This document shows, piece after piece, positions 27,491 to 63,009 of a stretch of 64,000 nt of DNA. A program made the translations under genes and the position numbers. Origin of the DNA: Phoronis australis (lineage: Eukaryota; Animalia; Phoronida); contig NMRA01000127.1 in the NCBI GenBank assembly GCA_002633005.1, positions 767,253 through 831,252 of the forward strand, in the 5' to 3' direction. Position 1 is the first letter of the stretch. Each line of letters starts with the position of its first letter. Under the pieces are notes generated by a model that searched no databases, was not told where the DNA came from, and saw only the letters and a program-made list of their open reading frames with translations.

Positions 27491-29615
27491 AGAAGAAGCA
27501 ACGAGTGACATCAAATGTCAAGATGAGCGTCTAACTAGCAGTGTTGAAAAGAGCGCCAGTTGAACATCTTGGAAGTGTAAGCTAATCGTGATGGAAGTCT
27601 TATCCACTAGAGGGGTTTGATGTCCTGGTATCTCCGCATGGCTGTAGATCGTGCCAAGCAAAGTGTAGGAAATGGAAGACACGAAGGTTGTTGAAAAGTC
27701 TCGGACTTTGTGTAAGTTGCTAACCGCGGGGTGAATGCTTTCTTTTGACACCAGCCATGGGAATGCGGTATCATCACTACCGCTGGCTGTGCTTAAAACA
27801 AATGAACATGGCATGATTGTGATTGCTGTTGTCGCTTTTTACATTGTGATATAAAGACACGTGATAGATTATTTTGGTAGTGCTTCTAGTACTGCTAGTG
27901 TATCATAACACATTGGTTCTGAGATATGTAGATTCTAATGTGGTAACAGATCATGTTCAGCCAGTGACTTGCAGCTTTCTTGAATTAACATGGGGGCAAT
28001 TTCAATCACTTTCTAAAATTCCTTAAAATTGCATTTGCATGCTATGGCCAAAAAGCATACTTTAGTTGGTTCAGGGAGGCATTCCAAGTAACTGACACGA
28101 GTTCATTTTTGACTTAAGTCTAAAATTTGTCCCAACTTTCAAACTTTGAAATTTCCATATCTGGTATGTTAGTCAAACTTGTGACAATACTTGTGTAAAA
28201 AAATTAAGTCAAATTTAATGTCACATTCTTGGAATTGAATTAAGTCAAATCGTTTTATTGTAAAATTGACTTAAGTACATTTAAAACTTGTTTTAGCTAA
28301 GTCAGTTTTCTTAGAGTGGACCCCTGGTGTACGAATAAAAACATTACCACACCCCTGCTCGATTTTCAAAAAAACAGAGATCAGAACTACACTTTTTTGG
28401 CCTAAAGATTTATTTTTATGGGGCCAAATAAATTTTGACTAATGATATTTTTAGAAACCTATTGGTTCTGATGGTAGGGTTAAAAAGTGACACGTGGGGT
28501 AATAAATATTTTCAAGACGAATTCTGTGGTAAAAATCATATATTGTAGATTTTTGATCATAAATTATGCTCCATGTCTTGTCGGTATTGTGATCTTATTG
28601 GGGAATCATACTGCTTGATGTGGGCCAGGGGTCTGTTTCTCGACTTATAAGACTGAAGACAGAAATTTGGTCTTACACTCCCATTTCACTATTACTGGGA
28701 AAAGGTTTACTCAAATAATTATGACTGCATCACACTCTACAAATAATTTATTGAAATTATGTCAGCAATTGGCTGTGATGCATATATTCTCAGATACATA
28801 GCACTTTTGTTCGAGTGAGATTTTATTATTTTTCAGAAATAGTTGTGTGGAGCACAAGGCCAAATTGCTTAACCTAAGTCTGAAGTCACTTATCATGAAA
28901 CAGGCCCCCTCTGTTGTGAGATACGTCAAACAAATATAATGAAGATATCCTTTCACATAACCTGCTGGATTACAGGTCATTTTTGGGTTTGAGGTTAATT
29001 GTTATTTTTCTAGGCCCGACACTTTACTCCGAGTTGAACGTAAAACGCAACTGTATTCCAGTTCTGGCCTTGGATTTTTGGCCCAGGTCTAATTTGCCAC
29101 CCATCAGGGCGACTTTGAAGCTTTGAGAATCACTTTTGCAACTTTTTGCAAAAATTGTTAAGTCATGATATTAACTTATTGATAGAGGTCTTTTCAGGCT
29201 GTGCTGCATATGGTATTTCTAGATATGGTGTTATCTCTCCTCTTTTGTGGCAATTTTGGGTGTTAGAAAAATACCTCGTGTCCGTGGCATAAGGTTACAT
29301 ATTTTTGTGTGGGGCATTGTTCTAAATGCCTCACTCTTCAGTCCATGTGTGTCTGAGGTGTTAAAAAATTGACAATGGAAATTATTTCACTTCTTCATTT
29401 ATCATGGGAGGTAAAACAAATTTTGTTTACATCAAATTCTGCATGGAATAGTATCATATTTCAATAAAACCTCTTCTATATTTGATATTTAGCTGGACTG
29501 GTGGAATATTGTAATGTTGTTGTACCAAGCTGATTGTATATAATGCTATAAATTATTTATATATAGTGTGGGGACTACAGGCAACCTGAAATTGCCTTCC
29601 ATGACATTAATTTAT

Positions 29616-30912
29616 TACTATGCGCCCACATATATATAGTGAGGGCGCATCTTGTCATCATCCCTGTTCCGGCATTCAACATCTGGTACTGCATCTTGCA
29701 AATACCTTGAGAATTGGGAGATGCTATTTGGTGAAACTGACAACAGATGGCGACAAGTTTCAGAGCAGTCCAACTACGGCATGTGTCCCCTAGTGGCAGT
29801 GTGATTTTTTTACGTTTGCCTTTGTATTTCGGAGTTCTTTGGTGGATTTTCATGAAATTCAGATTATATATTTTTATTAAAGAGACAGTAATGCCTTTTT
29901 ATTTTCGGATACATTTGATGTATTCCGAGTCACCAAGTAGCCATTTTAATTATTTTCGAGCCTATTTTTTGGCGTCCATCTCTCTATTTTCAAAACTGCT
30001 AAAAGTATCATAATTAAAATTGCCACTTGCTCCCTCCTAAAAGACTATGGATGATGTTGATTATTGTACAAGCCCAGCTGCTGTGGTGTTCCATTGTAGC
30101 AGTTTTATTTCTTGTGTCCTGGGTTTATGTTCTTAACCCATCGCAGGATTTTTGTGAAATTTGGCCTGTTTTCCTATGAATTTGGCTATGAGGGACAATT
30201 ATTTTTGGACGTATCAGATTACTGCTGTGCCTCCTAGTGACATTTTTTATGTTTGCCTCTGTATCTTCATAGTTACATGACAGATTTCAAGAAATTTGGC
30301 AAATAGGCATCTGTTAAGAGCATGGCGAGGTTTTCTCATTATCAGATTAATTCAGAATATTCTGCATCGCCTAGTTGCCATTTTCATTGTTTATAAATCT
30401 GTTGCTTTGAGGTCTGGGTCTCTATTTGCCAAATTACTTTTAGGATGATTATGAAAATTGGCATACACATTCCTAATTCATGGGCAGCGCAGCAGTGAAA
30501 AAATGGAGGGGGGCCCAGCCCCTATGGTGCGCCGCACATGGCTGATTTTGGTTACTGTAATTCCCTCTTGTGACAAGTTTATTCTATGCGTCTATCTTCT
30601 TAACCCCTTGCAGGAAAGTTGTTAATTGTGTTCCTATGAACATGGCTGGGGATGGCAACTTCCCACTTGTGCTGTGCTTCATAGCCGCAATTCTATTTTT
30701 ACATTAGTGTCTGTATCCTTAGAGTTCCTGGATAGTTTTTCATGAAATTTGTCAAATAAGTTTCTGTTAGGGAGACTGGACTTTCCTATTTTTCCCCAGG
30801 TTTGGTATATTTGCATCACTTAGTGGCCACTTTTATAATACTAATAAACTCCCATAGAAGCATACGGTTTGCGATGCAGCCATGGGCCATTCCAACGCTT
30901 TTCGTTGCTCTT
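29616..30912 (+). mobile_element. HINE/DINE-1/pearl-like non-autonomous Helentron-associated element
   Basis: 5' hairpin atgcgcccac...gggcgcat, internal degenerate tandem units (ctagtggc, gaaatttggc), 3' tttgcgatgca...caacg...cgttg stem-loop. Confidence 0.6.
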
Positions 30913-31752: not shown

Positions 31753-33067
31753 CAGTTGAATTTGAGGTCCATTTTTCTTTTGATCTTGTAGAATGATTTT
31801 TGGTCAATATGTTAAACGTCTTTTGTTAAGTTATTTTAATGGAGTTTCACCATTTACTCTAGCATTATACTTACCCTACTTTGGGTCTATGGTCATGGTC
31901 CTGGGGCTTGTTTCAATAGAATTTTGTGACATTTTTACAGAGACTTACGGCAATTCGCACGAGTCTCCGTTTAGACTCTTTGTAAAAACGTCGTAAAGTT
32001 GCGACATTTTATTGAAGCAGGACTATTCTTAATTTATTATGATATTTATTGTTTTCCTGTTAATGACGTGGCAAAATCAACGATGTTAATTATTTGGAAC
32101 TGGGTTTTGTTTCATTGGGTAAGGTTAAGTATTTTCTTTTTTTCTACTCTGTACGTTCTTCCATCGTGTTTCTGACAATCTGCTTTGTTGTCATCTGTAT
32201 ATAACTGGATGGTTATTAAACTGAGAAACGATGTACGGACTTGTTTTTATTCTGTGGAATGTTCTCAAGTTGATGTGTCTGAAAAAAATCACTGCATCTT
32301 TCACTCCATTTGTTCCTGTGGACTGCATTCCACTGCAGTTCCGACATGTCAATTATAAAGCTAACAATTCCTGGCAACCAGTGCTCGTGAAAATGGAACC
32401 ACATTGATTATCCACCATTTCTGTTCCGTAGAGGTTTCGTGTCGCGCTTGGGATACCTATGAAATACAGGGAAGGAACGAGGAAAGGTGTATGTTGTTGG
32501 TAAAAGCATATAACAGACTCCAAGATTAACTGAATATACATCTAGGTGAAAAGAGATTCAATTTCACATTGGATTTTGTTCATTCTGTTTATATTAATAG
32601 TATCTGACGTGATTTATCGTCTGCAAGGTATATTTATATATATGCATTTACACGCCCACACATATTAGGATGACAACGCACATAACTTACGGAAACGTGG
32701 CCTCGTCGGCAGCCATGACCAAGACACTATCTTACACGCTTAGATCACCAGTAGCCCAGACACTGTCATAACTTTCAAATGCAGTCGAAATTTCTTTGGA
32801 ACAAAAATCCATTGCTCAATACTACGAGAAAATAAAAACACCAAGCAAGTACAAAGAAAACCTTTCCAAGCAATGAGCTTAATCTTATTTATTTAAGGAC
32901 TTTTAAAAACTTTTTTCGATCTACGGTTTGTAAGTCTGAATTTCATCAATGTCTTTACGAGTTATGATAGGCAAAAATCTTCTAAGTGTATTTTACTATT
33001 TGAGGATCGGATTACAGAGACAGACAACTTCAGGCTGCAATTAAATTCACTTAAATATCATCATTTC

Positions 33068-33645
33068 TTAAAGGCGAAGGCAACCTTTTTTCATGTCATT
33101 TTTAGCAAAAATGAGGTTCGTTGATTATCCCAGACATATTTTTCACTTATTTACTGCTTTTCGTAATTTAATTAATTACTCGTCGCCTACTCCAGAAGTG
33201 ACGTTTTGGGAGGCAAGAATTTCGCGCCAATTTCTTTTCATATAGTCTGACTGTGAGAGAAGTCGAGTCAGTCACTGTTCTATCTCGGTTGTGATAAGGT
33301 CGGTCGTCGTTTGCTTTTGTTTACGAGTCAGTCAACATGCCACGCTGTTGCTGCGTGCCGGTATGTACTCATTATCGTCTTACACGCGCTTTGGGTACCT
33401 TGCGTCGCTTTTCGAAGGACACACTTCGCCGTACTTGGCTAGCTTGTTCAGTATTAGGTCTGAGCAGAAGTGAGATAGCAGCCATCCACAATCGTTCCGT
33501 TCCTTATGCAGTTACTCGCTTCAACCACAACACAACTGTGCGCAGTTACGCTTCAAAAGGGTGTGCAGTACGCACTGCAAACGTTCCAGCTTCAACCACA
33601 CGTTCAGCCTAACTTTTCACTCCCATCAAACACGTTGAGAGCAAT
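33068..33645 (+). mobile_element. Left end of a THAP-encoding DNA transposon remnant (Kolobok-like)
   Basis: TTAA followed by AGGCGAAGGCAACC; MPRCCCVPVC...LRRFSKD.LRRTW at 33337 and frameshifted VCSTH at 33561 resemble a degenerate C2CH THAP domain; cut by an insertion and the N at 33657. Confidence 0.5.
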
Positions 33646-34272
33646 TTAGTGGCGGANGATCCAGGATTTTTATTCAAGGCTGGCCAGGGCAGATTATTAG
33701 CCACGATTTTGCACGTCACTAGCACACGGCGCACCTCCGAAGTGCCAAATGGAATCTGGGAGTGTTTTATTGAGGGGGGGCAATGATGTAAGACTGACAA
33801 TGTTGCATCGATTCGTGAAGAAAATGTCCCTGTATCGAATTTTCCAGTTGCCATTCCCAAACTGATTTCTTCGAAATATACGACCTGGGCTTTTATTCAA
33901 AGATTTTATAGTATGTTTGCTTTATTCAGCCTGAGGAATCCGGTACTCTACAACTCGCTGGTTTCCTTTGTGCCGCTAGGTGGGGCGGTAGCCACTGGGC
34001 TAAGCACGCAGGGAACCAGCGAATCGTGAACAATAGCTGGGTTGCGTAACACTGTCTCGCGAGATCAGCGAGAACGTCACTTTAACCACGCGCACTTTTG
34101 AAATCTTGCTTCGTCCATCGCGGAAATCTTTATATTTACAGCAGAGCAGATATGAGGCCTCGTGAGAGATGCAAGAAACGAATCAGGGTAAGTTGAATTT
34201 TTTTGCACTTTCCACCATTTTTTGCTTTTCACAGACCGAATTACATGGTTATCGGACGATCCATCGCCAGAC

Positions 34273-35197
34273 GTAGGCAATGACCATCGCCTCTGTTGGC
34301 CCGAAGCAGAGGCGATGCAGAGGCTAGCCTATAGGCGCTCTGTACGCCGGAAGCTTTTCGACGAATTATGCCTCGCACCGACTAAACCATCAAAGTCACG
34401 CTGTTATAAATACCTTTTGCGCATAGAGGAACACTTTAGGAGGTTGTCGATGTGTTTAAGTCCTTCCAACTCGAACAAATACTCCCGTTATGAAACTTTT
34501 TCTTCGAGCAGTCCCTATTTCAGTTCCCAAAATCGTGAAATCAAAATTTTCATTTTTTTTAACCAGGCCGAAGGTCAGATGTTACGATCCTACCGGCGAA
34601 CTTTGAAAGCTGAAGTTCCCGCCCTTTGCGTATGTGCTGCCGGGAACCATTCGTGCCGTGTTGTTAAACATTAAAATGTCAAATATGTGCACAAAGACTA
34701 TTAAATGTCATATCAACAGCATTTATTTTTATCAAATACAAACAATAATTCATTGAAATACAAACAGTTTCAAGTAACGCCAATTAAAGACAAGTGGTGG
34801 CATTTTGGAAACGAACATTTGACTGACAAGACCGCAATGGCTCACCTTTGGCCTATTTAAAAATTTAGGTGATGAAGTCACATCACCTAGCGAGCGCGGT
34901 AAAAATTGGAGTGTGCGCAGTACAAAAATTTTGATTTCACGATTTTGGGAACTGAAATAGGGACTGCTCGAAGAAAAAGTTTCATAACGGGAGTATTTGT
35001 TCGAGTTGGAAGGACTTAAACACATCGACAACCTCCTAAGTTGTTCTTCTATGCGCAAAAGGTATTTATAACAACGTGACTTTGATGGTTCTAGTCGGTG
35101 CGAGGCATAATTCGCCGAAAAGCTTCCGGCGTACAGAGCGCCTATAGCCTCTACATCGCCTCTGCTTCGGGCCAACAGAGGCGATGGTCATTGCCTA
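34273..35197. repeat. Inverted pair of ~280-bp near-identical segments (34273-34550 and 34925-35197)
   Basis: Same peptide appears in ORFs 34222(+) and 34750(-); right copy stops at the N at 35198. Confidence 0.85.
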
Positions 35198-35263
35198 NGG
35201 GGGCTGAGGGGGCTTTAGCCCCCCACTTTTTTCAGCGCTGCACCGCCCATGATATATACCGTA

Positions 35264-35862
35264 TATAATACAAGGTATGACACTTGGGACTTGGAATTCC
35301 ACGGGTGCTTCACTTCTGCTGTCCATAGCAAACACATAAGTCAATAAATTTACACAAAACAGGTTCAACAAACCATGAGGAATTAATCTTTCTCCCAATA
35401 CCATTTACTGTGTCCTGCTCCGCCAAGTTCGCAAGAAATTCGCGGTCAAAGCACAAAAATCTTCAGAAAAAGCCCGTGGATACCGACTCCCGTGTCCCAT
35501 GGAAATTGCCGATTTGTCAGGAAATATCATAACATTGGTAACTCCACACTTATCCAGATCACTTCGTAACCTTTCATGACAAATCAGCAACTGCCATTCA
35601 TCCATAACTCATCGGAAAATTCCGTACCATCCTTAACCTTCGTGTGGGACATGGGAGCTGCTCTGCACAGGCTTTTTGGGAAGATTTTTGTGCTTTGACT
35701 GTGAATTTCTTGCTAACTCGGTGGAGCAGGACACCGTAAATGGTATTCGGAGAAAGAAAAATTCCTCATGGTTTGTTGAACCTCTTAGTTTTTTTGCTAT
35801 GGACTGCTGAAGTGAAGCACCCCTGGAATTTCTAGTCCGGAGTGTCGTAACTTGTAGTATTA
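35264..35862. mobile_element. Foldback MITE with ~230-bp imperfect terminal inverted repeats
   Basis: ~35264-35500 is the reverse complement of ~35645-35862. Confidence 0.75.
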
Positions 35863-37141: not shown

Positions 37142-37267
37142 ATAAACTTCTCAGATAGTGAAATCCTCATCTTACAGTCAGCTTGGGAGCAAGGGATGCG
37201 AAAAGAGAATTCTGCAGAAGTCAAGGAAACTGCCAAGAAATTGGGTTGCTCAGAGAGACGAGTCAAG
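37142..37267 (+). CDS. Homeodomain-like exon (INFSDSEILILQSAWEQGM...AKKLGCSERRVK)
   Basis: tttcag acceptor; weaker gtgcag donor at the common homeobox intron position (VK|TW). Confidence 0.7.
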
Positions 37268-40200
37268 GTGCAGTGATCAATGGGATTTGTTTGTTAAGAA
37301 TAATGAGCTCAAAACTTGCAGCAAGACCAAAATTAGACACAATTAGAAAGTTCACAATACTAACTGAAATAATGAAACAATAACATGCAGTTAAATGCAC
37401 CTGAGTACTTTGTATGTTAGGGGCATATTACGGTCATCTCTGCGTCTGGCATCTGCCTCCTGTATCTACCAAACCGCTTGTAGGATCATGAAAATTCGTA
37501 GGTCTATGTGTCTATCAAGGTGTTGCTGGCATCTGCTTCTCTATCCATACGACCCATCATTTTGAAATGTGGCGGATGTGTTTCAATAAAGACTAGAGGA
37601 GCACTGCTGACGTACTTTTTATGCGCCCACATATTTATATGTGGTCGCATATTGCCGTCATCTCTGTCCGGCAGGCCTTCATGCAGCGTACGTCCTGGGC
37701 GTCCAAATGGACGCCCAGGACGTACGCACTAATGTAGACGCCCTGGCAAGGACGCCCAATGTATCATTTGGACGCCCTGTCAATCAGATTTTCTCCAGTT
37801 TAGACACCCACATTGAAAGATTACCAAGACTCCTAGTTAATCAAAGCAGGAAGTTGGTCCTTTCAACTGGGAAAGAAATATACAAAGTCTTTAAAATGTT
37901 GCAATATTCAAACTATTTGGTGGACCTGTCAATCATTAGCACGAGGTTGGTTGCCAGAGTGTCTGCTTTTTCAATAGACTCACATGCTATTGCCATTCTG
38001 TACTTTATATAGGGACATGGACCTTGCTTAACTCCAAACTGGTGTTTCAGAGCTGTAATTTCATGTACTTCATCTTTTTTTAAAAATACCAAAAGCAAAA
38101 TAAATGTCATTATTTTAATAATATGATGTGCCGCAAGAATATCCCCATTTAAAATGTTTGAGTTTTCGCCTGTTTCATGCTTTTCTATGTGCGTCTAAAA
38201 CGGAGCAGCAGTGACACCTGTTGTCAAAATATAAACCATACATCANCAATACTCCCGTTGTCGGATTGCTTCGATGGATTTTGCGCCATCTAGTGGCCAT
38301 TTTTACTATTTTCGAGTCGTTTTTTTGGCGTCTGCCCCTCTAACAATCAAACCACTCTAAGGATGATTGTGAAAATTGGCATGTATGGTCTTACTATGAA
38401 GAATACAGTTGACGATGATTTTCTGATGACTTCGACTACTGTGTTGCCTCCTAGTGGCAGTTTTGTTTATTTTTGCACCATGGCTGTATCTCCTAAATGC
38501 TCCACAGGATCTTTATTAATTATAGCAAATGTATTTATATAAAGTTGACAACAGACGACGACTTTCGGACAGATCGGCCTACTGGTGTGCCCTCTAGTGG
38601 CAATTTTATTAGTTTTTTACGTTAATTGCTATATTTTCAAAGGTACTTTACATATTTCCATAAAATTTGGCACATAGACATCCATTAGTGAGTTGATGCT
38701 AGCCATTCATATTGGGATTGATTCAAGGTTTTTTACGCCACCTATTGGCCATTATTGTTGTTTTTGAGTCTGTTTTGTGGCGTTCGTCCCTCTGTCAACC
38801 AAACCACTCTAAGGATGATTGTGAAAGTTGGCATGTAAAACTATGTACTTTCTATGAAGGGGACGGTTGCCGATGATTTTCTGATGACTTCGACTACTGT
38901 GGCGCCTCCTAGTGGCGTTTTTTTTTTTTTGCACCCCTACCTGTATCTCCTAAGCCCTCTGCAGGATCTTTATTAAATTTAGCACGTGTTTTTATATGAA
39001 ATTAACAAGAGAAGATGACGACTTTTAGACTGATTCGATGAACACTGTGCCCCCTAGTGCAATTTCCTTTTTTTGTTTTCCTCTGTTTCTCTGAAGTTTC
39101 GTTTTTTTTTGTTTTCCCTTTTTCTCTGAAGTTCCTCGACGAATTTTAATTAAAGTTGGTAAATGGCTTTCTTTTAAAAAACGATGACATCTTTTTGGTT
39201 TTCAGATGGATTCGATGTATTTTGCACCAGCTAGTGGCCATTTTAATGACACAAATAAACAACCCTAAAAGCACACCATTTGCGATGCATTCGTGGGCGC
39301 ATTTCAACGTTCTGCATTGCTTTTGTTTGGATGATTTGAGTACTGCACTGCCACCTAATGGCAATTGAGCTCTTATTTATATACCTCAATTCATGTCGAA
39401 TTCTTTAATGGACATTTTTCTGACTGCTGCATTTGCGTGTTTGAGCACGTTTTATATTTTGCCATTTGCGATGCACACCATTGCTTTCATGTTTATTCAT
39501 TTTTTCTTTGCTGGTAAATTGTGAGGGTACAAGTCTGTACCATATAGCCTAAAACGCCCTTTGTTCAGGGCTTGGAATTTTCCTCCTTTAAGAGGATTTC
39601 CCCGTTTTGGTTTCGATTTCTTCTCATTTAATTTCCAGTTCTCTCCTCTTTTTTATTATTTTTGGCTTTATTTAGACTATAACGTTCATTGCAGTTAAAT
39701 TTTACAACACAAGCAGTATTTCTATCACACAAGCCTATTTGTGGAACAATACATCACGTGGAAATTTTTCTTCTTTTTGTCAATGATTATTCCAAACCCT
39801 GTTTGTTGAAGTATTTGTGTCTTGTAATAATTATTATTATAAAATTGTATGTAATCAAATGAAAATGAAACAGAATTACAGAAGATGGATTACAGGGATA
39901 TTCCTGGACTGCGCCTTTGCGCCATTAACGCATAAAATAAAAAGGCACAAAACGTTCAAACCTGGTCAAGAATATCCCTGGGATTATGTGGTACACTGAA
40001 AACTAGCCAATAAATGTAACCTCATATTGAGTGGTGCTGATCAAAGAGTATATTATCAATTTATTAGAGCCACTGTGATTGTCTGAGAATTTTAATAAAT
40101 TTCAACCAAAATATACAGTTTATATTGGCATTCTTTGATTCATGGTCTAGCTTTTTTGTTTGTAATCATTTATTTGCATTTTGGATTTTTATGTCACTTA

Positions 40201-43200
40201 AGTCTGAAAGTTTTGATTTTATTTCTCAGACTTGGATCAACAATTATAGAAAAAAAGTTACAGGAAAAACATATGAGAGACGGAAAATGCTTTATCTCAA
40301 GGGGAAGAGTGCGTACAACCAGTTCTGCCATGAAAAGGGTGAGTGCTATACTTAGATCCTTTTTTTGTTAAATTAGCTTCTGAATTTCACGTTGCATTTT
40401 ATTATTATTTTTATATACGTCTTTCTTTAGTAAAATGAAAAAATATGTTTTCTTGTTAGTGAATAAGACATAATAGCATTATTCATTAAACAATTGCCAC
40501 TTGTTAGGGTAACTTAAAGTTCTTTCTCAACAGAATTCTTTACTAACACTGCTACACCACACATATGGCAAATACACAAGATGAAGGACACTTAATGAAA
40601 CCGGAAGGCTGGTGTATGTATTCGTAATGCATTATTTTATCATTCTCATATTTGATCAACAGGTGCTGAAGTTGGGGCTGGTAATTTCAAGCAGTGGGGA
40701 GAAGAGTGGAAAAAACTTTCACTGGATGAAAAGATGAAGTACAAGGAAAAGTCGTCTGAACATGTCACCCCGGGCCCACATTCAAAGAACAAGCTGATGC
40801 AAATTTTCACCCAAACAGTGAGTTTAAGTATTTATTTGGTGCTAACTTGTATTCTTAATCAGGAACAAGCAAACTGAAGTCCAGTTGATCGGACTGTCAA
40901 GATCAACTTAAAAATAGCATAGCATGTACACGATTTTGTTTTTTGAATTTTTTAAATATCTTCACTGTGTCAAATTGAATTTTATGGGAATCTATTTCAC
41001 CAATCCTACTAATGATATTCAGTCTTGAACAAAAACTAAATTTCAAAAACATTGAGAAACTTATTTTAATTTCAGGTTGAAGACTTATCAGACTTAGGGG
41101 TTAATATTGCTGGACTTGTGTGGGACTCTTCTGGCAATAAGGTGAACAGCTTTGGCAAGGCAACACTGGCATCGTTCTTTGACAATGTCATGATGGCAGA
41201 TTTTTACTTACATGAAACAAAAGGTGGGTGAGTCACAGCATGTGGTGTGCAAGTTGTGTTTGTTAAAATGCTAAAAAGGTTCATGTCATTTTTTGTTGTC
41301 TCTGTCTCTCAAAATAGATGTTTTAACTGTTATTGAGGTTTGATGTTTATTATTTAGGAAATTGTCCTAATGCAGGCCCTTTGTCTTACTTTTAAATGCA
41401 ATCACTATTGAACCGTCTGTTTTGAGTTGTAAAACAACTATTTTCTTCTTAAAGAGGTTTTTAAGATGTTTAAGTAAATCTATTCTGAAATTTTCAATAT
41501 ATCTGTTTCTAACTTTTCTATAGAAATCATATACTTTAACTTGTCATAATATTTGTTTCAATTAACAGGCAGTCAAAGTAACCAGACAGGTGTGCAAATG
41601 AAAGATCTGAGAGTAGAGTTACGCCATCTGCTAAATGATCTGTACTGTAAGTTGAAATATATTATTGCAAAAAACTTCATCCCTATAAATTACCGTAGTT
41701 AATCATGTGATGAAGAAGAGACGAATCCAAATGGGAGAAGCCAGAACGATATGCCAGTGTCCAGTTTGCACTCTATATAACAAATCCTGTTCCACAGTAG
41801 GAATTGTTAAGAACACTGTTTCGGTTTCCTAACACACCCGTGACCTCTACGCACCCACAACTGGAGTTCCTTGACGTTCTTCATGAAATTGAGCAAACAA
41901 TTTTCTATCATGAAGACGACAGCATCTTTCTTTTTCGTGATGAATTGGACGTAATCTGCATCAACTATTGGCCATTTCTTTAATCTGTTTTTTTGCCTCC
42001 TGCTTCAGAATCTGTATCTGCTAAACCACACTGAAGGTCATTATGAAAATTGGAAGATGTGTTTCTACTGTGTTCCTAAACCCCTAGCATGAAATTTTGC
42101 AGTTGTATTCCTATTAAATTGACAGCAGATGGATGCATTTGACTACTGCTGTTGTTCCTAAGAGCAGTTTGTTTTTTGCATTTGTCTTTGTATTTTTGGA
42201 GTCCTTTGACAAATTTAGATAAAATTTGGCAAATAATTTTGAGACAGCGACACCTTCCCATTTTCACAATGGGTTCAATGTATTGTGAGCCATCTCATTG
42301 CCATTTTTGTCATAGAAATATATACCCTCAGAAAGTTTTAAGTGGTGCAGTGTTAAACTTTTGTTTAAACAATCAAAAATCATTCAAGAACACACCCTAT
42401 TCTCCTTGTTGCAAAGTTAACTTTATATGAACATAAAAAAACTTGGTTTTCACGTAAATTTAGGGGAAATTTGCACCAGATCAAATGTTTGCTTACACTA
42501 TTATGATTTTTTTTACTTTAAAGGTTATGTAAACTTGACTAGAATCCTTGGCTCTGGTGCACACATGTCAGAGTAGCCGAATAAATATTAGTTGTTGAGT
42601 TACAATTTCAATTTTGATCTATTTCCTATGTTGTTCCATTAAAAATATGTGCTTAAACCAGTTAAATTTTTCTTTATAGCGACTGCTGTGGGAAAATCTT
42701 CTCGAGTACCCTACCAAAGTGTTAAGGAGGGCAAAATAGTTATTGAAACAAATATGCCAGGCTTAGTTTTGAGAAAACCAGACTACTACAGCTTGACCAG
42801 ATTGAAGGAAATTCTAGATTTCCACAGGAGGACAGGACTTTTACTGAAAGTGACAAGGTAAACAGTGTTGTGAATTATGTGCTTATAGGTTTAATTAAGA
42901 GCTATGAGGTTTTGTTTAACATGTTGGTTAAGGCTATGGAGAGCCTCATTAACAAGACGACATTCAGCCAACACGCTTCAAAAGCATACTGTATACAGAA
43001 GTTCACTCCGCCAAAGTATACATTTTCTGAAAGAGGAAATTCTTCTGAATTTGATTGTTGAATATATACCAATCTGACATAAATAAGCTGTGGTGAGCAT
43101 GCTTTTTTAATAAAATTTAGCACAAGAAAAGAAATATGCATTCATAACAAAACAACAGGATCAATTACATGACCTTATTTCATATGATATAAATGTTCAA

Positions 43201-45925
43201 GGTAAAGACCTATCTTTTCGATGTCCATCATGCAATTATAGACCCATTTCTATTCTTCCAACAATCTCAAAAATTATAGAAAAAAATATCCATACTCAAC
43301 TTTCAACTTTCCTAAATGAAAATGATATTCTTAATAAACATCAACATGATTTCAAGAAATGTCACTCTACAGAACTTGCTTCGCTTGAACTTTTAGACCG
43401 CATTTGTTCCCATCTTGATAATGACATGAATCCCCTGGTCATCTTTCTAGATCTCTCTAAAGCTTTCGACACAATAGACCACCAAATACTCTTGCAAAAG
43501 ATAAATCACTATGGTATTTCTGGAGTTGAATATACACGGTTTAAAAGTTATCTCTCAAACTGCACCCGATATGTTTCACTAAGTGATCACTAAGTGATAC
43601 AACTTCCAGTTGGTTACCAATAGCTACCGGAGTTCCCCAAGGCTCTGTCCTTGGCCCACTTCTCTTCCTAGATTACATAAATAATCTTTCGTTTTCTTCT
43701 CCCATGGACACACTTCTTTATGCTGACGACACTTGCCTCGTCACACCTTACAAACTGACTGAATCTTCCCAACACACTTTACAGCAATCAACCACCATCA
43801 ACAACAACGTTAAATCTATTTCAGACTGGTTTTCCGTGAACAAACTTTCAATTAACACATCAAAAAGTAAATTAATGATCTTCCACTACCCCCAAAAGAA
43901 AATTGAAAAATGTATTATTCCCACCATTTATATAAATAGCATATGAACAGTTTTCCTTTCCTTGGTATTACTGTTGACAAAAACCTCTCATGGTCCCCCC
44001 ACATTAACCTCATCTCAAACAAACTTAACAATCTTGGTGGACTCTTATACAAATTGAAATCATATCTTCCACTTACAGCTGTCAAGTTATTATATAATTC
44101 ACTTGTCCTTCCACATTTAAACTATGGCATTTCAACTTGAGGTTTTGGCAACACTAAGAAACTTCAGACGGCCCAGAAAAGAATCCTTAGGAATATATCA
44201 AATTCCAGTTATAATGCTCACTCTCTGCCCATATGTAAGGAACTTCGCCTCCCTCTACTTCAAGACATCTTTAAAATCTCAACTGCAAAATTTTACTAAA
44301 AATTCCTCAATAATCAGCTTCCAAAGTATTTTTACACTAACAACTTCTTTAGTAAACCCATCCAATATAAACCAACCAGACGCATTAAAACTCCTTAATA
44401 CCTGAATCAATACTCAGCTGCTATTCTGACAATACAACCCAAAATTTCAATTCCTCCGTCCAACAAATTGTCATCAAGAGCCTGTATTAGATTTCAGATT
44501 CCTCGACTTAAAAACAACAACAGAATACCAGTCTCTGCTCTAAATATAAAATCACATTCTTTGCAAGCATTCTCCAGGTTCTTAACCAATTTTATTATTA
44601 GCAACTACGACCCAGTTTGTCATATTTCCAATTGCTTCATATGTAACAGTATCTAATTGTATTCTCAAAATCTCCTGCTGTGCCAGTCTACTTCTTGGTT
44701 CCTGGCGTGTCGGTTGTTTTCAGCAATAATTCACTGTTTTCTTAAGTATTCCTACTGATTTTTGCATTTCCATTTGTGTCTTTCATTGTTTACTACACAC
44801 TATGGGAGCTGCGAATATTTGAGCACATGTACAATGCAGCCTGTGAAGTGTGTTAGTATATCGAAGTTATTCAACATGTTCTGAGTCTGTCTGGTTTGCA
44901 CACTTTACAGATTACAGCAAGACATCCAGTGAAGCTTCGGTCCCTGTCCTAATCTAATAAAATAAAAGGAACAACTTTGAACCAAAGGTATTAATACTAG
45001 GAAAACTTAGTCATTTTTCTCTTGTCGCCTACAATCTGAGGTTGCGTAGGTTGCATTGAAGTTCATAGTAATGCCTTGTATTGTTTAATGAACTATTAAT
45101 CATATACTACACAAAAGATTGACTAGGTGGACTGGTTTATTAAATTTTGGTATTTAAGTATATGATGTTTTTTACTGTGGACATATTTAAGATGATGGAG
45201 AGAGGAGAGGCGCATATGGTGGAATTCAAAGGTGATACTTAATCTGAAATTTCTTTCACAAAGAACCTGTTGATTAATAACATTGGTAATGTGTTTCCCT
45301 TGGTGATTCGTTCAATGGACCCATTACCATGTAGTCTGTGCACCTTCATCCTTTTCCTTTTCTAGTCATTGTAAGGTCAAAAATGTTTTACTGTTGCCTA
45401 GAGAATTGCAATGCCAACACAAAATTGAAAGCTGCATGTTATTATTCCAACTAAGCGCAAAACTGTGCGATAATGGCCGTGACGTTTGAGAACTCAGTCG
45501 ATTGTACAATCCAATTTTTGTTCGTCCACAAATGGAATTCAGGATGTGGTTTCATTGAATGAATGTCTCAACAGCTCATTTGATTGAATAGCTGTCTAGA
45601 ATTTAGACGATCTCGGTTACCAAATCGGGATCATTAATTTTTTCTGACTTTATTACTTCAGTAATCAACATGTGTCATTGCATGATTTCATGGATGTTGT
45701 GAATTATGTTGCAGACTCAAAAAAGAAACTAAAGAAAACCTGCCAGCAAAAAAAAAGAAACCAAAAAAGCAGGGACTTTGGACTGTCAAGGATATTTTAG
45801 GTATGCATATTACTAAAGATGGCAAAAAACAAGCAGAGGTGCAGTGGGAGACTGGAGAAGTGACGTTCAAGCCATGTGAAAACTTAAGAGATGTTATTGA
45901 GTCTCATCTCCCAAATTTGTCTTGA
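37142..45925 (+). CDS. Multi-exon gene: divergent (HDX-like) homeodomain + HMG box + GTF2I I-repeat-like domain + chromodomain-like C-terminus; start codon not located
   Basis: Exons 37142-37267, 40230-40338, 40663-40817, 41076-41223, 41569-41646, 42680-42857, 45715-45925 all have AG/GT ends and compatible phases (0,1,0,1,1,2) and give 1005 nt with no internal stop; domains recognised by motif. Confidence 0.75.
37617..39325 (+). mobile_element. HINE-like element of the same family, with a nested hAT MITE and an N at 38246
   Basis: 5' atgcgcccacatatttatatgtggtcgcat; subterminal IR gtgggcgcat at ~39293; internal tandem units. Confidence 0.65.
40230..40338 (+). CDS. Exon: homeodomain helix 3 end (TWINNYRKK) and HMG start (KGKSAYNQFCHEK)
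   Basis: ctcag/gtgagt boundaries. Confidence 0.8.
40663..40817 (+). CDS. Exon: HMG box (FKQWGEEWKKLSLDEKMKYKEKS)
   Basis: cag/gtgagt boundaries; G..W..L...EK..Y HMG signature. Confidence 0.85.
41076..41223 (+). CDS. Exon of the same gene (VEDLSDLGVNIAGLVWD...YLHETK)
   Basis: ttcag acceptor; open frame; phase-1 donor. Confidence 0.7.
41569..41646 (+). CDS. Exon: first part of GTF2I-like repeat (DLRVELRHLLNDLY)
   Basis: aacag/gtaagt boundaries, phase 1-1. Confidence 0.75.
42680..42857 (+). CDS. Exon: second part of GTF2I-like repeat (AVGKSSRVPY...LRKPDYYSLTRLKEIL...LKVTR)
   Basis: ttatag/gtaaac boundaries, phase 1-2. Confidence 0.78.
43205..44660 (+). mobile_element. 5'-truncated, degenerate non-LTR retrotransposon (CR1/L2/Crack-type RT) inside an intron
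   Basis: NYRPISILPTISKI, DLSKAFDTIDH, GVPQGSVLGPLLF, YADDT, FLG, LYNSLVLPHLNYG and terminal CHISNCFIC, spread over several frames with stops. Confidence 0.9.
45715..45925 (+). CDS. Terminal exon: Lys-rich putative NLS plus chromodomain-like motif (WTVKDILG...KDGKKQAEVQWETGEVTFKPCENL)
   Basis: gcag acceptor in phase 2 matching 42857; TGA at 45923-45925. Confidence 0.68.
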
Positions 45926-45956
45926 TAAGTTGTTGTTGGCCTTACCACATTACCTC

Positions 45957-46620
45957 GTTATTTCCCCACATATTTATACGTGGGTGCATATTGCCGTCAT
46001 GTCTGTCCAGCATCTGCAGCTATATCTCCTACACTGCAGTGCCGCATAGTGGTAACTTTGATTGTTACGGTTGCCTATGTATTTTCGTAATTCTTTGATG
46101 GATTTTCTTGAAATTTGGTGGATAGGTTTCTATTTTTAAGACAACAAAACCTTTACATTTTCGGACATCTTCACTGTTTCTGTGCCACCTACTGGTCATT
46201 TTTGAAATTTTGAGACCGTTTCTTTTTTGGCGTTTCCCTTTCTATCTGTAAAACTTGGAGGATTGTTGTTAAAGTTGGCAGACGTTATTCTGATGAGAAG
46301 CCCGCTTCTGACATTGATACTGAACGGGTTCCAGTACTTAAGTGCCACTTAGTGGCATTTTTGTTCCTCCTTAACCATTTGTAGGATCTTTCTGAAATTT
46401 GGCAGACATGCACCTACAGAGGTGACAACAGTTTATGACAAGTTTCAGACTCATTGGACTACCACTGTGTCCTCTAATGACAGTTTTAGTTGTTCACGTT
46501 TGTCTCTGTATTATCAAAGTTCATCAATGGATTTCCACGAAGTTTGGTAAATAGGCATTGATTTGTGGAAGGGTGTGACAATTGTAATGTCTCCTGGTCG
46601 CCATTTTGTCATTTTTGTTG
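45957..46620 (+). mobile_element. HINE-like element, partial
   Basis: Head cccacatatttatacgtgggtgcatattgccgtcat plus internal units. Confidence 0.55.
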
Positions 46621-49113
46621 CCTCAAATAAGCTACTGTATTTCCCAATGCTTAGTGCTGCTCAAATCTTGATGACGTACCAGCTTCAACCGCAGAGTGGG
46701 CACACAAGACACGGCATTTTTAGCGCCAACAAACAACGAGTTCTAAGTGGGACACCCAGACATTATGTGCCTAAAAGTCATTGCTGTTTAGAAATTGAAG
46801 AATTAGGTAATTTCATCTTTTGGCCCACCTTGCCAATGTTATGGTTAAGACTCTTGTATGGAAGTTAGGTTTGAAAAATTTCCGTCAACTTCTCGTGGTG
46901 TAATACAATTGATTCATGGTGTCACGGGTAGGTGTCTAATCTCTGTTTAATGTTTATCCACCATTATTATTTCCTACAGATTTTTCTGGCCCCAAGTACG
47001 TAGCTGGCTTAAAAGTGAATATAACAATTTGTTTGTGCTATGAGACTATATTCTGTAATAGACTTTTCAACTGATTAAAACGATGATTATTTTTTCTATG
47101 AAACGTGACTTGCATTCACATTTCAAAGTGTTGCCTATTGTTTGCATGTAATCCTCGAATGTGTGTTTTGTGAAAAGTTGTATTTGATATACACATAGAT
47201 TGTAAATGTTACCTTGGTCATAAATATTCTTCTCAAACAACTTCGCTGAACCTTTTCTTATCTAGCTATGTTATGTGTTGTACTACCGTTTGTTGACAAA
47301 GAATAATTTCATGGCTGAAATGGTTCATGAGTAGCAATAGTTATTACTTGGACATTGATTCGCTTTCTAGCTAAAATGCAATTGATTAGTGAAGGTCTGC
47401 ATTTTTTGATTGTTGGTGTACACTGATTTTCAAGTTCATCACTTGAAAATAAACTTATTGAAAATGTTTTTCTTCGTTATCATTATATTTTAATGTTTAA
47501 AAAGCCCTAATCAGTAATGAAAGCATTGAATACTTTATAATGAAGACATTTCTCCACCACTGATCTTGTCCTCTCACATCTTGAAGTTACAATGGGAGAT
47601 AAGTACAAAGAATACAGAAGTATACCTATTGAAATAGCGCCGGACAATCGTGAGTCTCTAGAGCCTAGTTCAAAAAGCATAAAAGATCTCAAAGCGACGG
47701 AAAATCATATGTGCGATTAGTTTCTCACCTTTGTGTACGTTGGCAAATGTTAACCCAAAAAGTTAGTATCGGAAAAGTCCAGGTACGCAGGTGTAATGGG
47801 CAAAATCGCCTAAGGCTATACAGTATTATATTGCCTGGGCGGGGGGGGGCACGACCCAAACATCTTAATTGGTGTGTATGTTAACGGGCTTCAAAAATAG
47901 CCCAGACATTTATGGAATGGTTTGAGACAAAAGGCACGCCCCAGTCGAAGAGAAAACCCTGAACATGTGACCACAAGGGAATGGTCTGTCAGCATCATTT
48001 TTTGCGATGACAGTTTAAGACATTAAACGCGTGACGTGCTATAATGGAGTGTTGATGGTGAAAAAGCTTCCTTTATAGTCTAAAACGGGTGAAAAACAAC
48101 GAAGGCGCGTAACTTGCTCGTGGTATGACACAAATCTGGATTACGTGACGCACTGGTGCGTTATATGACGCATTACGCGTCACCGTTATACACATTTTTT
48201 AATTGCAAATTACCAAAAATTAAATAAAGAAAATGTGTTAAGAGAGTGATAGTCTTTCGTATCTGCTCATTTTAGGGCATTTGAGTCACGTATTTACATA
48301 AACAGGAAATGGTGAAATATGCAACCTTATTAACAAGACATTTTTCTGTTTTCCAATGCCCAATTGAGAAATTTCTGTTTCAGAACGTGTGAATTTAAGT
48401 TCTTCAGTGATCCACAAGGGACATTTAAAATAAACAATTATCTTCTCAGCCACGACCAGAAACCTTTTTGTTTAACTGTGTTTATTTATACAGGCCAACT
48501 GGGACAGTTGTATACTAATAGATGGGTTCCCAAGGAACTACTTTCACTGACCAGTAAATTTCAAAAGGTCTACTGTGTGTAAAGGACACTCATGATTTAC
48601 AACGGTTCCAAAAATTCCAAACCATTGTGAGGTCTAGTTAACACCTCCAAGCCCAAAATGATATAAGACAAATGGCGAAAATTCTTTTTTTCACGACGTA
48701 CTATCAGCTGGTTTGTACACTCATTTAAACGAATAAAACGTCTTGCCACACTTTTCGACTACAGTGTGCACATGAAATTATAAAAGGCAAAGTATATACA
48801 TGTGAAAAAAACAGAAGGCGAACGTTAAGCATTAAAGATTGGGCAATAGCCACTTAAAAAGGTCCCCAGGTGTTGAGAACCAGTTTAATACCCCTTATTC
48901 AGAGGAGAAAAGCTGGTTTTCCAAAAACAGAACCCTGTAAGTGACTATTACCAAGATTGAATTTTGTTAACATGTTTATCGAACAGAGGTCTACTTTCTG
49001 GCACTTGACACATGAAAAAATTTTTATTCGCCATCACGATGGCAACCTTTTACTTCAAACTGACAGTCAGATCCATTAATTACACGTTGGTGAATTGTGA
49101 TTAATTATGTGTG

Positions 49114-49370
49114 TCAGCAATCCTCATCCCCACTATTGTCACATGATTTTTCTTCATCATTCTCAAGTTCCTCGTCGCACAGTATATTCAGTTTTGACCT
49201 TTCAATCACAGTTTCAATGGCGTCTATCAAAATACTGGGGTGAGTGGCTACGGTGTCGTTAAGCTGATGTGCAAGAGCTTGCAATCTCAACTTTAACCTC
49301 ATACATTTGTTCAACCACATATTAGATGCCTGTGCTTCATCACCTTCGTTCTTATACCGCTGGGCTTTTT
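49114..49370 (-). CDS. Orphan terminal-exon-like ORF with helical core and acidic tail (...KCMRLKLRLQALAHQL...DEELENDEEKSCDNSGDEDC*)
   Basis: Pyrimidine-rich acceptor ending ggaacag; protein-like composition; upstream exons not resolved. Confidence 0.35.
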
Positions 49371-52300
49371 CTGTTCCAAAACAAAAGTATTTCATGCGCC
49401 TATTTCATCCTTAAGGTAGTTAAAATTCTTCTGCAGCACGCAATTTGTACAGATGTAATAAACCTTCGAAATAGTGAATCTTCGAAGTAGTAAACCTTCT
49501 AAATAGTGGGCTATTCCCATTTCCAGCAATGTAAGGAACTTCAATAAAGCGCAAAAATACAACAAAGTAAACAATTTCGTCAAATATTCACCGACTAAAC
49601 TTTATATTTCTGTCCGAGCATATAATCAGTTTAACCACTCATTTAAGCATGCCTGATTTAACTAGTTTTGGCAGGAGGTAACGTGAGAACGTTCTCTTGC
49701 TGGACCATAAATTACATCCGAATTTGAGTCCTGTTCTTTCCGAGCAACCGCCACAGCATCCTCATTTCTGGTATTACAAGTTCCGTTTCATCTCAGGAAC
49801 ATAGCATGGGCGGCGCAGCACTGAAAAAAGTGGACGGCTAGAGAGCCCCAGCCCCCTGTGGTGCACTGCCCATAGATCATGGGCTACCGTATTGAAAAAA
49901 TGGGAGGCAACGACCCCCCCAGCCCCCTACGGTGCGCCGCCCACGCATAGAGCTGAGAGTCATCGTTATGTAAACAGATTTCCCATCCCCCCAATTAAGC
50001 TGCATCAAAGGCCTTACGGGAAACTCTTCAGTGTGGACGTTTGCAAAACATCACAGGTCCACCGTTCTAGAAATTCGAACCACCCCCCGGCGCTCAACTC
50101 TGGCTACGAGCCGGCGATAGCACCTCTGAAATCTAGTACGATCCCGAAGACAAAAACCCGCCTAGCACCATTTTTACTCGCATTGGCGACTGGGCGAGCG
50201 GCTAAGTATATGCCTGGGAAGGATACCGACGAGTTGGAATTGGTACGTTCAGGCACTGCACAGTACACCAAGAAGGCCAGCTGATGACCGCTCACGACTT
50301 ATCAGTGTGCCTCGTTTTCGATCAGTATTTAAAGATGGCGCGGGAAGATGGCGCTTTCGTGAAATAGGTGAATAGATCGCAGATATGCATCCCTGAACTC
50401 CACACACGCACCGAAAAGACTCAGCCCATACATGATGATAAAAGGCCCTTCCCTTAGACTACTAGTTCCACGGTTGTACTGTTAATTCTCAGCTAGGATA
50501 TAAAAGCATGACTTGAATCTGGTCCCCGGAACTTGGTTATCGTGTATGGAGCAATTCAGGTGCCTGTACTGTATGGACTTTAGGGATGCGAGCCTGGGGA
50601 ATTGGTTGCTGCTGGTCCGGCACTGGAGTTTAGGGTGACCGTAACTGAAACTTGAAGGCGCTTGCACAGAAACTGTTTCCACATTATGCTAAGTAATTAG
50701 CGGAACTCTGTCCTGTGGAAGAAATAGAATAAATTACACTGAATCGTGGAAACCTTGTAATTAATTGCAATTGTTTGATTCACGTGCATAGTTTGTATCT
50801 CCATTAGCTGTATCTAGAGTGTTCATTCGAAATGAATAATGTCAACCCGTATTTGCCTAAGTTATAAGTTATGCAAATTTATGATGTAATGGCCAGCATT
50901 AATAAACCAGGAAAACATGGATGCAAATATCAAGGTGATTTACATGAAGTGCTACGTAAGGCAATCACGAATAGAGGTAGAATATTTGATAATGGTGGAC
51001 ATTATTTGCATAAATTATGAAAATTTATAATGCAACAACTTGCACATGAATTTCATTAATTTAATTGCAAATAGAAATAGCGGAGAAAATATCAATACAA
51101 TTTAACTGTGGTGCTTTTTATCCAACCTATAGGTACAAATAGGCGGCAATAATTTGCATAAATTATGTAAATTCACAATTATCCACCTGTAAACCAACTC
51201 CATTTAATTCACTGACTTTGGAAACATAGGTAGTACATCAAAATAATCTATCTATTTTACTTCGTAAGGAAATTATTAAAAACAAAATTTTGCTTAATGG
51301 CGGCCTTAATTTACATATTTATAAAATTCTCAAGGTGGTAATGATTACAAGCCATCTAAAGTGCTTCCCTCCGGGGTACTAACTCAACGCAAAACTAATA
51401 AAAACCTTATTACAAAGAATTTCTACTAATGTTTGATGATAAAAACAAAAATTGAAGACGACAATGTCTGTTGGCTTCTCCTAAAATGTTATATAACTCA
51501 GCACATTTAGTATTTGGATTTCGAGATTTTAGCACCTCCTTACATAGTGTCCCACTGCCATTCACACAACTTGCACTATTAAATTCATTGACCATGAAAA
51601 CATGGGTAAAACGTCAAAATTATCTGGCTGCAGTGCTTGGTAAGGAAATTATAAGCAAAAATAGAATTTTGCATAATGGCGACCTTAATTTGCATATTTA
51701 AAAATGCTCAATACTTAACCTAGGCTACATGAAACAGCAAAGAAAAAAACTTTATCCGGCAAAACCAGGTTCAACCCCCTGGCTCCCGGACTAAATTTAA
51801 TGTCATGTTCTTTAGGGCACGCGTGCCAATTTTAACCACAATGCCTTGTAAACATGCAGATGAGTACGGAAACTAACGAATACTGAATCGAACGAGCGTG
51901 CCACACACAGGAGTAAAACGTCACAGATGTCTTACTTTTAATTGATGCCCGATGTTATGACAGACAACTTGATCTGACAATAAAGGGGAAAATGTGATGG
52001 ACGCGTGCAGTGTCTTCAAGTGAAGTGAATCACTTCGATAAAAAGTCATCTAGCCTACATCAAGTTAGCTACAAAAAGCACAGGGTGTGTTCTAAAGATT
52101 AATGAAGTTATAGGTACCTGCAAAGGCTACCTGTGTCGTTGTTACTGTTGCTAGTAGTTAACCGGTAACTATTAGTGTGAAATAACAATATCACATAAAA
52201 ATATAGCCAAAATCCGAATGTGCAAGAATAATAAACTTGTTCATGTCTAGAGTTGCTGGCAGTGAAAACTCATCAGACAGGGCATTTGACGATCATTATT

Positions 52301-55311: not shown

Positions 55312-56105
55312 TATTATGGGTAATAACAATTTTGTAGTACTGATATACGTATGATTATTATGGGTAATAACAATTTTGTAGTACTGATACATGTATGATT
55401 ATTATGGGTAATAAAAATTTTGTAGTACTGATATATGTATGATTAATAGGGGTAATAACAATTTTGTAGTACTGATATATGTATGATTATTATGGGTAAT
55501 AACAATTTTGTAGTACTGATATATATATATGATTATTATGGGTAATAACAATTTTGTAGTACTGATATATGTATGATTATTATGGGTAATAACAAGTTAA
55601 TAGTACTGATATATGTATGATTATTATGGGTAATAACAATTTTGTTGTACTGATATATGTATGATTATTACGGGTAATAACAATTCTGTAGTGCTGATAT
55701 ATGTATGATTATTATGGGTAATAACAAGTTAAAAATACTGATATATGTATGATTATTATGGGTAATAACAATTTTGTTGTACTGATATATGTATGATTAT
55801 TACGGGTAATAACAATTTTGTAGTACTGATATATGTATGATTATTATGGGTAATAACAAGTTTATAGTACTGATATATGTATGATTATTATGGGTAATAA
55901 CAATTTTGTAGTACTGATATATGTATGATTATTATGGGTAATAACAATTTTGTAGTACTGATATATGTATGATTATTATGGGTAATAACAAGTTAATAGT
56001 ACTGATATATGTATGATTATTATGGGTAATAACAATTTTGTAGTACTGATATATGTATGATTATTACGGGTAATAACAATTCTGTAGTACTGATATATGT
56101 ATGAT
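55312..56105. repeat. 44-bp minisatellite, ~18 copies
   Basis: Unit TATTATGGGTAATAACAATTTTGTAGTACTGATATATGTATGAT. Confidence 0.95.
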
Positions 56106-56449
56106 TTCAAACGTAATACACTAGTCAACGACGGTATACCAAGATTAATCCAAGAAACATAACCTGTGTTTCGACCAAAAATCCTTTTTAAAGTATAATT
56201 GGTTGGTAAAGTTTTCCGGAGGTTCTCAGTTTGACAGGAACTATGACACATAATCCGTTATGTGATTATATTAGAAACGCTAATGCATTTTTGACGTTGT
56301 CTGCTAACCATTCGCTATTTATCAAACTGGGTTTATCTCGCACAGCATAGAGTTGGGCTGCTAGCGCTGAGATTGGAAAGAGTTGAACTCAGGATACCAC
56401 CCCATACAATACAATCTTCTTTTGTAGTTTTTTCGTCATAAATTCATAG

Positions 56450-62752: not shown

Positions 62753-63009
62753 ACAGGCGCTCCACGATTACTTCTTAACACGCATCTGGCGGTGACCATT
62801 TCAGCGCAGATGTTCTTATTTCAGCTTTTATTTTCACGCATTGTTCTCTACAATAGTTTTCTCACTGTTCCAGTCGGAATTTTCTCTAATCATCACAAGT
62901 GATGGTTTGGAACCATCATGAGTGATGGTTTGGTTGTGTGATACTCAAGTATTGATTTACCTCACTTGATGCTTACCCATAATTCCCAGGAAGTAGTGTG
63001 GACTGGTGG

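Follow-up and report, generated by a model that had tools for sequence, protein, structure and literature searches.

A spliced Phoronis australis gene encodes one TFII-I repeat with likely homeodomain and HMG-box parts and may descend from a transposon companion gene

We analysed a 64-kb stretch of the Phoronis australis genome (contig NMRA01000127.1, positions 767,253 to 831,252; hereafter the window, to whose forward strand all positions refer). Its plus strand carries a gene that is real, transcribed and spliced, with at least 10 exons. The gene encodes one TFII-I (GTF2I) repeat, here called the I-repeat, and a chromo-like tail; a homeodomain and a short HMG box are likely further parts. 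It is likely to come from a companion gene of KDZ (Kyakuja-Dileera-Zisupton) transposons, now with no transposase found beside it. We put the probability of this reading as a whole at about one half. Judged by its architecture, the gene falls outside the vertebrate TFII-I family.

Results

The gene is transcribed and spliced

The gene was predicted in a first-pass annotation, made from the DNA letters, as seven exons that splice into 334 codons. All seven are present in the sequence with AG/GT ends and matching phases, and the 334 codons are open before the stop. RNA evidence came from three raw paired runs (X6, X7 and X8; 18-19% of each was read) and one contig set (X5). RNA of the gene was found in all three runs, and the first mates lay on the minus strand across all exons, which indicates plus-strand RNA as in usual stranded libraries. 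GT..AG joints were obtained for four of the six predicted junctions, namely 2-3 (8 reads), 3-4 (9 reads), 4-5 (25 reads) and 5-6 (13 reads and the X5 contig). Junction 1-2 (37267>40230) was not among the joints listed, with an RNA depth of about 3 over exon 2. Junction 6-7 (42857>45715) was absent among the 15 joints listed, and the depth at the end of exon 6 was low.

Further exons were found on both sides of the predicted core (Table 1). Upstream, 26 reads of X8 joined 34187 to exon 1. Between exon 6 and the last coding exon, reads supported the extra exons A and B, and the X5 contig held 203 letters between 42845 and 45715, that is, 191 nt of additional exon. This length is frame-consistent with the absence of two A from most reads at position 45748. 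A search of intron 6 in the window for a missing exon of 59-62 nt gave no candidate bounded by good splice sites. The seven exons therefore stand as sequence features, while the predicted 334-codon product is not supported as the actual transcript, since at least 10 exons are used and the 6-7 join was not seen.

Exons 5 and 6 encode a single I-repeat

Pfam was run per exon, and the matches to Homeodomain, HMG_box, GTF2I and Chromo were all below the curated cut-offs. For GTF2I, exon 6 alone reached E=1.5e-4 and 22.5 bits (cut-off 27). A hidden Markov model (HMM) of 50 vertebrate repeats matched residues 205-267 of the gene model (exons 5-6) over positions 1-67, which is the whole length of the repeat, with 24.3 bits. 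The best of 3000 shuffles scored 5.5 bits and the next of 1615 open reading frames (ORFs) in the window 4.4 bits. Ten of the 20 conserved columns are identical, and identity to the 50 vertebrate repeats has a median of 25%, the best being 34% to repeat 1 of GTF2IRD1, the repeat that follows the N-terminal module. Consistently, five of the six matches in a PDB search with exon 6 were TFII-I/GTF2IRD1 repeats (2eje, 2dzr, 2d9b, 2dn5 and 2ed2).

Among 1.84 billion representative proteins, 14 matches were obtained, and 9 of them belong to the vertebrate TFII-I/GTF2IRD1 family (9/9 by Pfam, 8/9 by name or cluster). The other five (P0121, P0123-P0125 and P0131) were rejected as unrelated repetitive proteins, four with other Pfam content and P0124 without clear family. 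The vertebrate proteins behind the HMM were themselves found by the exon 6 search; Pfam and PDB agree independently. At the level of sequence, the assignment of the I-repeat, already proposed in the first-pass annotation, is firm. A single-sequence fold of exon 6 had a predicted local distance difference test score (pLDDT) of 50.5 and was set aside. An Atlas query with record P0132 returned leads only: a mollusc-rich unnamed cluster (0.82), the Nrf1 DNA-binding domain (0.80) and a basidiomycete-rich cluster (0.79).

Exon joints lie at or near those implied for vertebrate TFII-I

Intron positions in vertebrates were implied by several protein records. P0147, a 71-residue record from an ORF on bird DNA, opens within an intron, reaches the repeat immediately behind its Tyr and ends 62 residues on, which implies a 184-nt exon of phase 1 to 2. 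Exon 6 here (178 nt) has the same phases and the same first residue, the end in P0147 being two codons later; this comparison concerns one record only. Upstream, an internal duplication in P0122 starts within a phase-1 Cys codon and implies a 139-nt exon, to be compared with the 148-nt exon 4, both of phase 0 to 1. One-residue differences between isoforms occur at the same joint in shark and frog, and in P0128 the resemblance to the family is lost immediately upstream of the Cys that aligns to the first residue of exon 4. Altogether, four joints agree in phase with the implied vertebrate introns within 0-3 codons, one at the same place in the repeat and the others at or near the corresponding place. 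Exons 4-6 are thus likely, as far as sequence comparison goes, to mirror the 5' exons of vertebrate TFII-I, a point absent from the first-pass annotation.

Exon 4 is a candidate counterpart of the N-terminal dimerisation ('leucine zipper') module of TFII-I. A weak hhalign alignment places its first residue on the conserved Cys of the module, and both carry DF at positions 42-43 of the exon. Folded as a single sequence, exon 4 gave a pLDDT of 77 and a predicted TM-score (pTM) of 0.43, and no Foldseek match at E<=0.001 was present among 32 rows.

Homeodomain-, HMG- and chromo-like parts

As a background for weak Pfam matches, 1 of 122 flanking ORFs matched at E<=0.01 and 4 of 127 short ORFs at 0.05. 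Exons 4 and 5 had no Pfam match. Homeodomain matched exon 1 with E=0.024, residues 2-42 lying on profile positions 6-45. Once exon 0 was added, R5, F8, W48, N51 and R53, which we take to be canonical homeodomain positions, were all present, with I at 49 and a three-helix spacing (numbering anchored on the Pfam alignment). This numbering confirmed W48, N51, R53 and the intron at 46/47 that had been pointed out in the first-pass annotation, and a homeodomain is likely. It may resemble that of HDX (highly divergent homeobox), whose homeodomain is divergent as well.

The HMG_box profile matched exon 3 at positions 33-56 with E=5.7e-4. Of the 5 PDB rows for this exon, two were the HMG box of PMS1 (E=0.34) and HMGB1 (E=3.5). 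A canonical HMG box has three helices, about 69 residues, a conserved Trp and a longer spacing from Phe to Trp; the spacing here is 20, and the box is about 8 residues shorter than canonical. The HMG box claimed earlier is therefore retained as an HMG-like segment matched by the profile, below the Pfam cut-off and about 8 residues short, for which a short HMG box is the likely assignment. The HMG-like box and the I-repeat lie in one spliced gene, as judged from Pfam, the RNA joints and the HMM.

On the last exon, Chromo matched with E=0.17 over profile positions 1-24 only. Two of the three aromatic cage positions are occupied (W22 and W44 of the exon) and a Gly stands at the third, according to the positions that we presume to form the chromodomain cage. 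With only two cage aromatics, the role as a reader of histone marks suggested in the first-pass annotation is doubtful. PDB sequence searches with exons 1, 2, 4 and 7 returned chance rows only, with no homeodomain and no HDX structure for exons 1 or 2.

The window copy and the variation in reads

Up to and including exon 6 the copy in the window is intact; its 3' part, beyond an inserted long interspersed nuclear element (LINE), looks damaged when compared with the reads. Exons 0-6 comprise 276 open codons with canonical splice sites. Beyond them, the acceptor of exon B is TG rather than AG, exon A has stops in all three frames, and at position 45748 of the last exon the window has two more A than most reads (the X5 contig lacks two letters there, as do 7/12, 3/6 and 35/44 reads). 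The 6-7 join of the first-pass annotation, which is in frame, could reflect chance or a rescue that is specific to the window copy.

The reads derive from other individuals than the assembled one. Most aligned reads are 87-95% alike to the window, and only 29-36 of the 487-649 reads in each run reach 99% or more. In its coding letters the X5 contig shows 13 differences in 164 and 20 in 224, and ahead of exon 5 its sequence is a different one. The divergent reads come from alleles of a very polymorphic species or from paralogues, which are indistinguishable in these data. Separately, 34 sense reads (X6 and X7) continue up to 40681 and then resume 89 nt further back, at 40593; all of them share one base change at 40602. 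The ends of this back-jump have no splice signals, and no second copy of it was found in the window; it reflects either a tandem duplication carried by another allele or copy of the gene, or else a small circular molecule.

Promoter, 3' end and inserted repeats

The CpG observed/expected ratio is 1.07 at 33.0-34.3 kb; it falls to 0.36 between 40.2 and 43.0 kb and to 0.27 across the seven exons. A ratio at expectation near exon 0 and depletion in the body would be the pattern of a settled, body-methylated invertebrate gene. The gene spans several insertions (Table 1), among them inverted repeats resembling miniature inverted-repeat transposable elements (MITEs). No exon of the gene recurs in the window.

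Table 1. Coordinates of the gene and of the features within it (UTR, untranslated region)
Feature	Position	Strand	Description
Likely promoter and 5' UTR	33000-34151	+	CpG-rich region upstream of the start codon; putative promoter role
Exon 0	34152-34187	+	ATG and 11 codons, 36 nt coding; outside the range first annotated; GT donor at 34188; homeodomain positions 1-5 (R3, R5)
Two inverted-repeat (MITE-like) insertions, intron 0	34274-35860	.	Arms 34274-34550/34925-35197 at 96%; 35265-35499/35645-35860 at 79%
Exon 1	37142-37267	+	Helices 1-2 and beginning of helix 3, homeodomain-like; position 46 is the last before the intron; sense-strand RNA depth
Exon 2	40230-40338	+	Homeodomain-like 47-55 (W48, I49, N50, N51, R53); first helix of HMG-like box
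Exon 3	40663-40817	+	Remainder of short HMG-like box, linker, start of a helix
Exon 4	41076-41223	+	148 nt, phase 0 to 1; candidate counterpart of TFII-I N-terminal (dimerisation) module
Exon 5	41569-41646	+	Phase 1 to 1; linker, then helix 1 of the I-repeat; repeat HMM positions 1-13
Exon 6	42680-42857	+	Body of single TFII-I (GTF2I) repeat; 178 nt, phase 1 to 2
Decayed LINE-type reverse-transcriptase fragment, intron 6	43114-44656	+	RVT_1 E=1.3e-14 and 3.8e-11 in two frames
Extra exon A	44911-44987	+	Newly found; 5' end placed by acceptor; joint 44986>45177 in 9 reads
Extra exon B	45178-45231	+	Newly found; 54 nt; 38 reads join 45231 to last exon
Last coding exon	45715-45928	+	Lysine-rich stretch and chromodomain-like end
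Likely 3' UTR	45929-47470	+	AATAAA at 47448; partly repeat; sense depth up to the 47028-47528 bin, then 0

Discussion

A transposon companion gene as the likely source

The gene may have descended from a transposon. Giant KDZ elements are described as carrying additional transcribed genes and, in many cases, a dead transposase (PMC12477816). HMG-domain companion genes of KDZ transposons were reportedly described by Iyer et al. in 2014, and in HMGXB3 an HMG box is tied to KDZ-derived sequence; we know of no I-repeat in HDX or HMGXB3. The present gene differs from KDZ companion genes in its chromo-like tail and in that no transposase or element ends were found with it. In the available parts of a paper on Kyakuja elements, the words HMG, homeodomain, GTF2I and accessory have 0 occurrences (PMC12730594).

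The protein would be a multi-grip, dimer-forming DNA binder. Its homeodomain and I-repeat would read DNA sequence, its HMG box would bend DNA, and the module before the repeat would dimerise, so that a dimer could hold two sites together. In a transposon the two bound sites would be the ends of the element, much as maize TnpA holds transposon ends together. As a solo gene, its bound sites might be host promoters or the ends of related elements elsewhere. Vertebrates would have retained the four-exon block of module, linker and repeat and amplified it into TFII-I/GTF2IRD1, with loss of the homeodomain, HMG and chromo parts.

Relation to the TFII-I family

The gene shares with the TFII-I family (GTF2I, GTF2IRD1 and GTF2IRD2; PF02946) a full-length I-repeat, an intron that interrupts the repeat at the residue and in the phase implied by P0147, a near-equal implied exon length and perhaps, with exon 4 as the candidate, an N-terminal module directly before the first repeat. 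In contrast, it has one repeat where the nine vertebrate matches have 5-7, and it carries homeodomain-, HMG- and chromo-like parts of which these nine proteins show no match. The host is also not a vertebrate, whereas TFII-I factors are described as vertebrate-specific in the available text of PMC10721858. Unlike GTF2IRD2, the gene has no hAT transposase (10.1101/2022.11.24.517799, as far as available). The same source, in its available part, reports hAT elements misnamed GTF2IRD2; a misannotation of this type was ruled out here by the true repeat and the lack of a transposase. No named gene with this domain layout and no invertebrate I-repeat gene were found in the literature searched, most subscription papers being outside its scope, and the first-pass annotation likewise knew of no named gene with this architecture. 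The literature found did not address the origin of the TFII-I family, and the part seen of PMC12428995 held no evolutionary statement on TFII-I.

A further-reaching reading can be offered only tentatively. TFII-I/GTF2IRD1 could have arisen by the taming of a transposon helper gene, and the phoronid gene could be a second, independent taming that kept the ancestral form, with four introns at or near the cuts of the TFII-I 5' exons. The ancestral form would then have comprised, equally tentatively, a homeodomain, an HMG box, a dimerisation module, one I-repeat and a chromo-like tail.

Evidence against a companion-gene origin and alternative explanations

Several observations count against the reading of a tamed companion gene with TFII-I-like exons. 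The vertebrate intron positions were deduced from single protein records rather than from genes. For exon 4, an unanchored HMM of the TFII-I module gave no match, 287 of 400 shuffles scored as high, and the hhalign probability was 0.1-0.5%. When exon 4 was anchored at the intron, 26 of 1500 shuffles reached its score and 8 control exons scored lower, and with 12 upstream residues added 59 of 1500 shuffles did so, both comparisons being post hoc. The Pfam scores of the homeodomain, HMG and chromo parts are sub-threshold. Word-indexed protein searches with exon 6 (0 of 32 candidates) and exon 3 (0 of 1) revealed no invertebrate homologue, which are weak negatives, as are the metagenome scans with exons 4 and 6 (0/599 and 0/595). 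No close invertebrate orthologue was found among the 1.84 billion representatives either. In the RNA, 38 reads of X8 pass from the end of exon 1 straight into the 54-nt exon B, a form with an early stop in the letters of the window, and 7 of 8 reads of X6 are one base short at 40710 in exon 3, which breaks the frame. Such frame-breaking reads and the exon 1-to-B form fit decay rather than settled host function. Finally, no transposase and no KDZ or CxC family was detected among 131 long and 127 short minus-strand ORFs (the scan excluded 111 short plus-strand ORFs), and inverted ends with a target duplication numbered 2, compared with a shuffle mean of 5.3.

The gene might instead still lie inside a large non-autonomous KDZ-like DNA transposon with several genome copies, its protein serving transposition in trans and the divergent transcripts coming from the other copies. 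The low identity of most reads and the differences in the X5 contig speak for this, as does the exon-skipping or internally deleted form that dominates X8, although strong allelic polymorphism could account for the divergence. Nested insertions and dead transposases are described for giant KDZ elements (PMC12477816, in the available part). The ends of Kyakuja elements are CA..TG and lack inverted repeats (PMC12730594, in the available part), ends that would be hard to see in one copy. In the window, CA..TG pairs with a 7-bp duplication numbered 56, of which a single tandem repeat supplied 15; a crude null gave 24. None of the pairs stood out in this single copy, and the CpG pattern is that of a settled host gene. 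With no transposase among the scanned ORFs and no ends above chance in the window, we regard this alternative as rather unlikely. What is kept of the first-pass suggestion of an accessory gene of a large DNA transposon is thus the possible descent from a companion gene.

An old host transcription factor that never had a transposon history, as a surviving form of the vertebrate TFII-I ancestor with its homeodomain, HMG and chromo parts, is unlikely. It would explain the intron positions in common with the vertebrate records, the closest match being to repeat 1, as well as the CpG-island-like start, the expression in three of three RNA runs and the lack of a transposase among the scanned ORFs nearby. 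The frame-breaking variants in the reads argue against it, and so does the absence of a close invertebrate orthologue, while the neighbouring PDE11 has hundreds, which also indicates that the gene evolves fast. Still less probable is that the window copy is a pseudogene and that the reads come from intact paralogues elsewhere. The dead acceptor of exon B, the stops in exon A, the two extra A in the last exon, the LINE in intron 6 and the few reads of high identity would fit such a copy. Low identity is, however, expected for reads from other individuals, exons 0-6 are open with canonical splice sites, reads of X6 and X7 splice at exactly these coordinates, and joining exon 6 directly to exon 7 would preserve the reading frame of the window copy.

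Factors of the TFII-I family account for much of Williams-Beuren syndrome. With an invertebrate gene that is expressed, holds a true I-repeat and matches in exon structure, the origin of TFII-I becomes testable by intron mapping and phylogeny. If the gene does descend from a transposon helper gene, it would point to where TFII-I came from; if the link to KDZ companion genes is true, TFII-I would join the host factors tamed from transposons, and the first job of its repeat would have been the binding of transposon DNA.

Other features of the window

The studied gene lies downstream of the 3' part of a PDE11-like phosphodiesterase gene (9965-27490, plus strand; GAF and PDEase_I exons). An exon of this gene shares 72-75% identity with proteins of nemerteans and molluscs, against 49-57% with vertebrate PDE11A, and the ranking of the whole gene agrees. 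One of its catalytic-domain exons occurs in two copies, at 24283 and 25374, with 97% identity in DNA. At 57243-64000 (plus strand), an approximately 80%-identical copy of the PDE segment 22612-26138 holds three exons, after which the segment restarts between 63-bp tandem repeats; this region is a tandem array of an internal gene piece. A second copy of the studied gene on the duplicated segment was ruled out, since the duplicate spans only 22.6-26.1 kb and then restarts.

Just upstream of the studied gene, the ORF at 33337-33612 (plus strand) has a Cys-rich start, presumably reminiscent of a THAP finger, has no Pfam match and lies within an abundant repeat transcribed on both strands. A dispersed repeat family at 37600-39700, 41900-42300, 45950-46600 and 29600-30500 sits in introns and the 3' UTR, and elsewhere in the genome it shows heavy, mostly sense-strand transcription (depth >100). 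In a CpG-rich stretch, protein-like frames occur on the minus strand at 49117-49404 (96 residues with an acidic tail) and 53750-54582 (three overlapping frames of 86-128 residues); they had no Pfam match, and a PDB search with two of the frames returned none. A short ORF at 48275-48379 (minus strand) matches the GPS motif of adhesion G-protein-coupled receptors and polycystins (E=6.5e-4, 1 of 127 scanned) and may be a stray exon. Positions 55167-56238 are occupied by a tandem array of 44-bp units.

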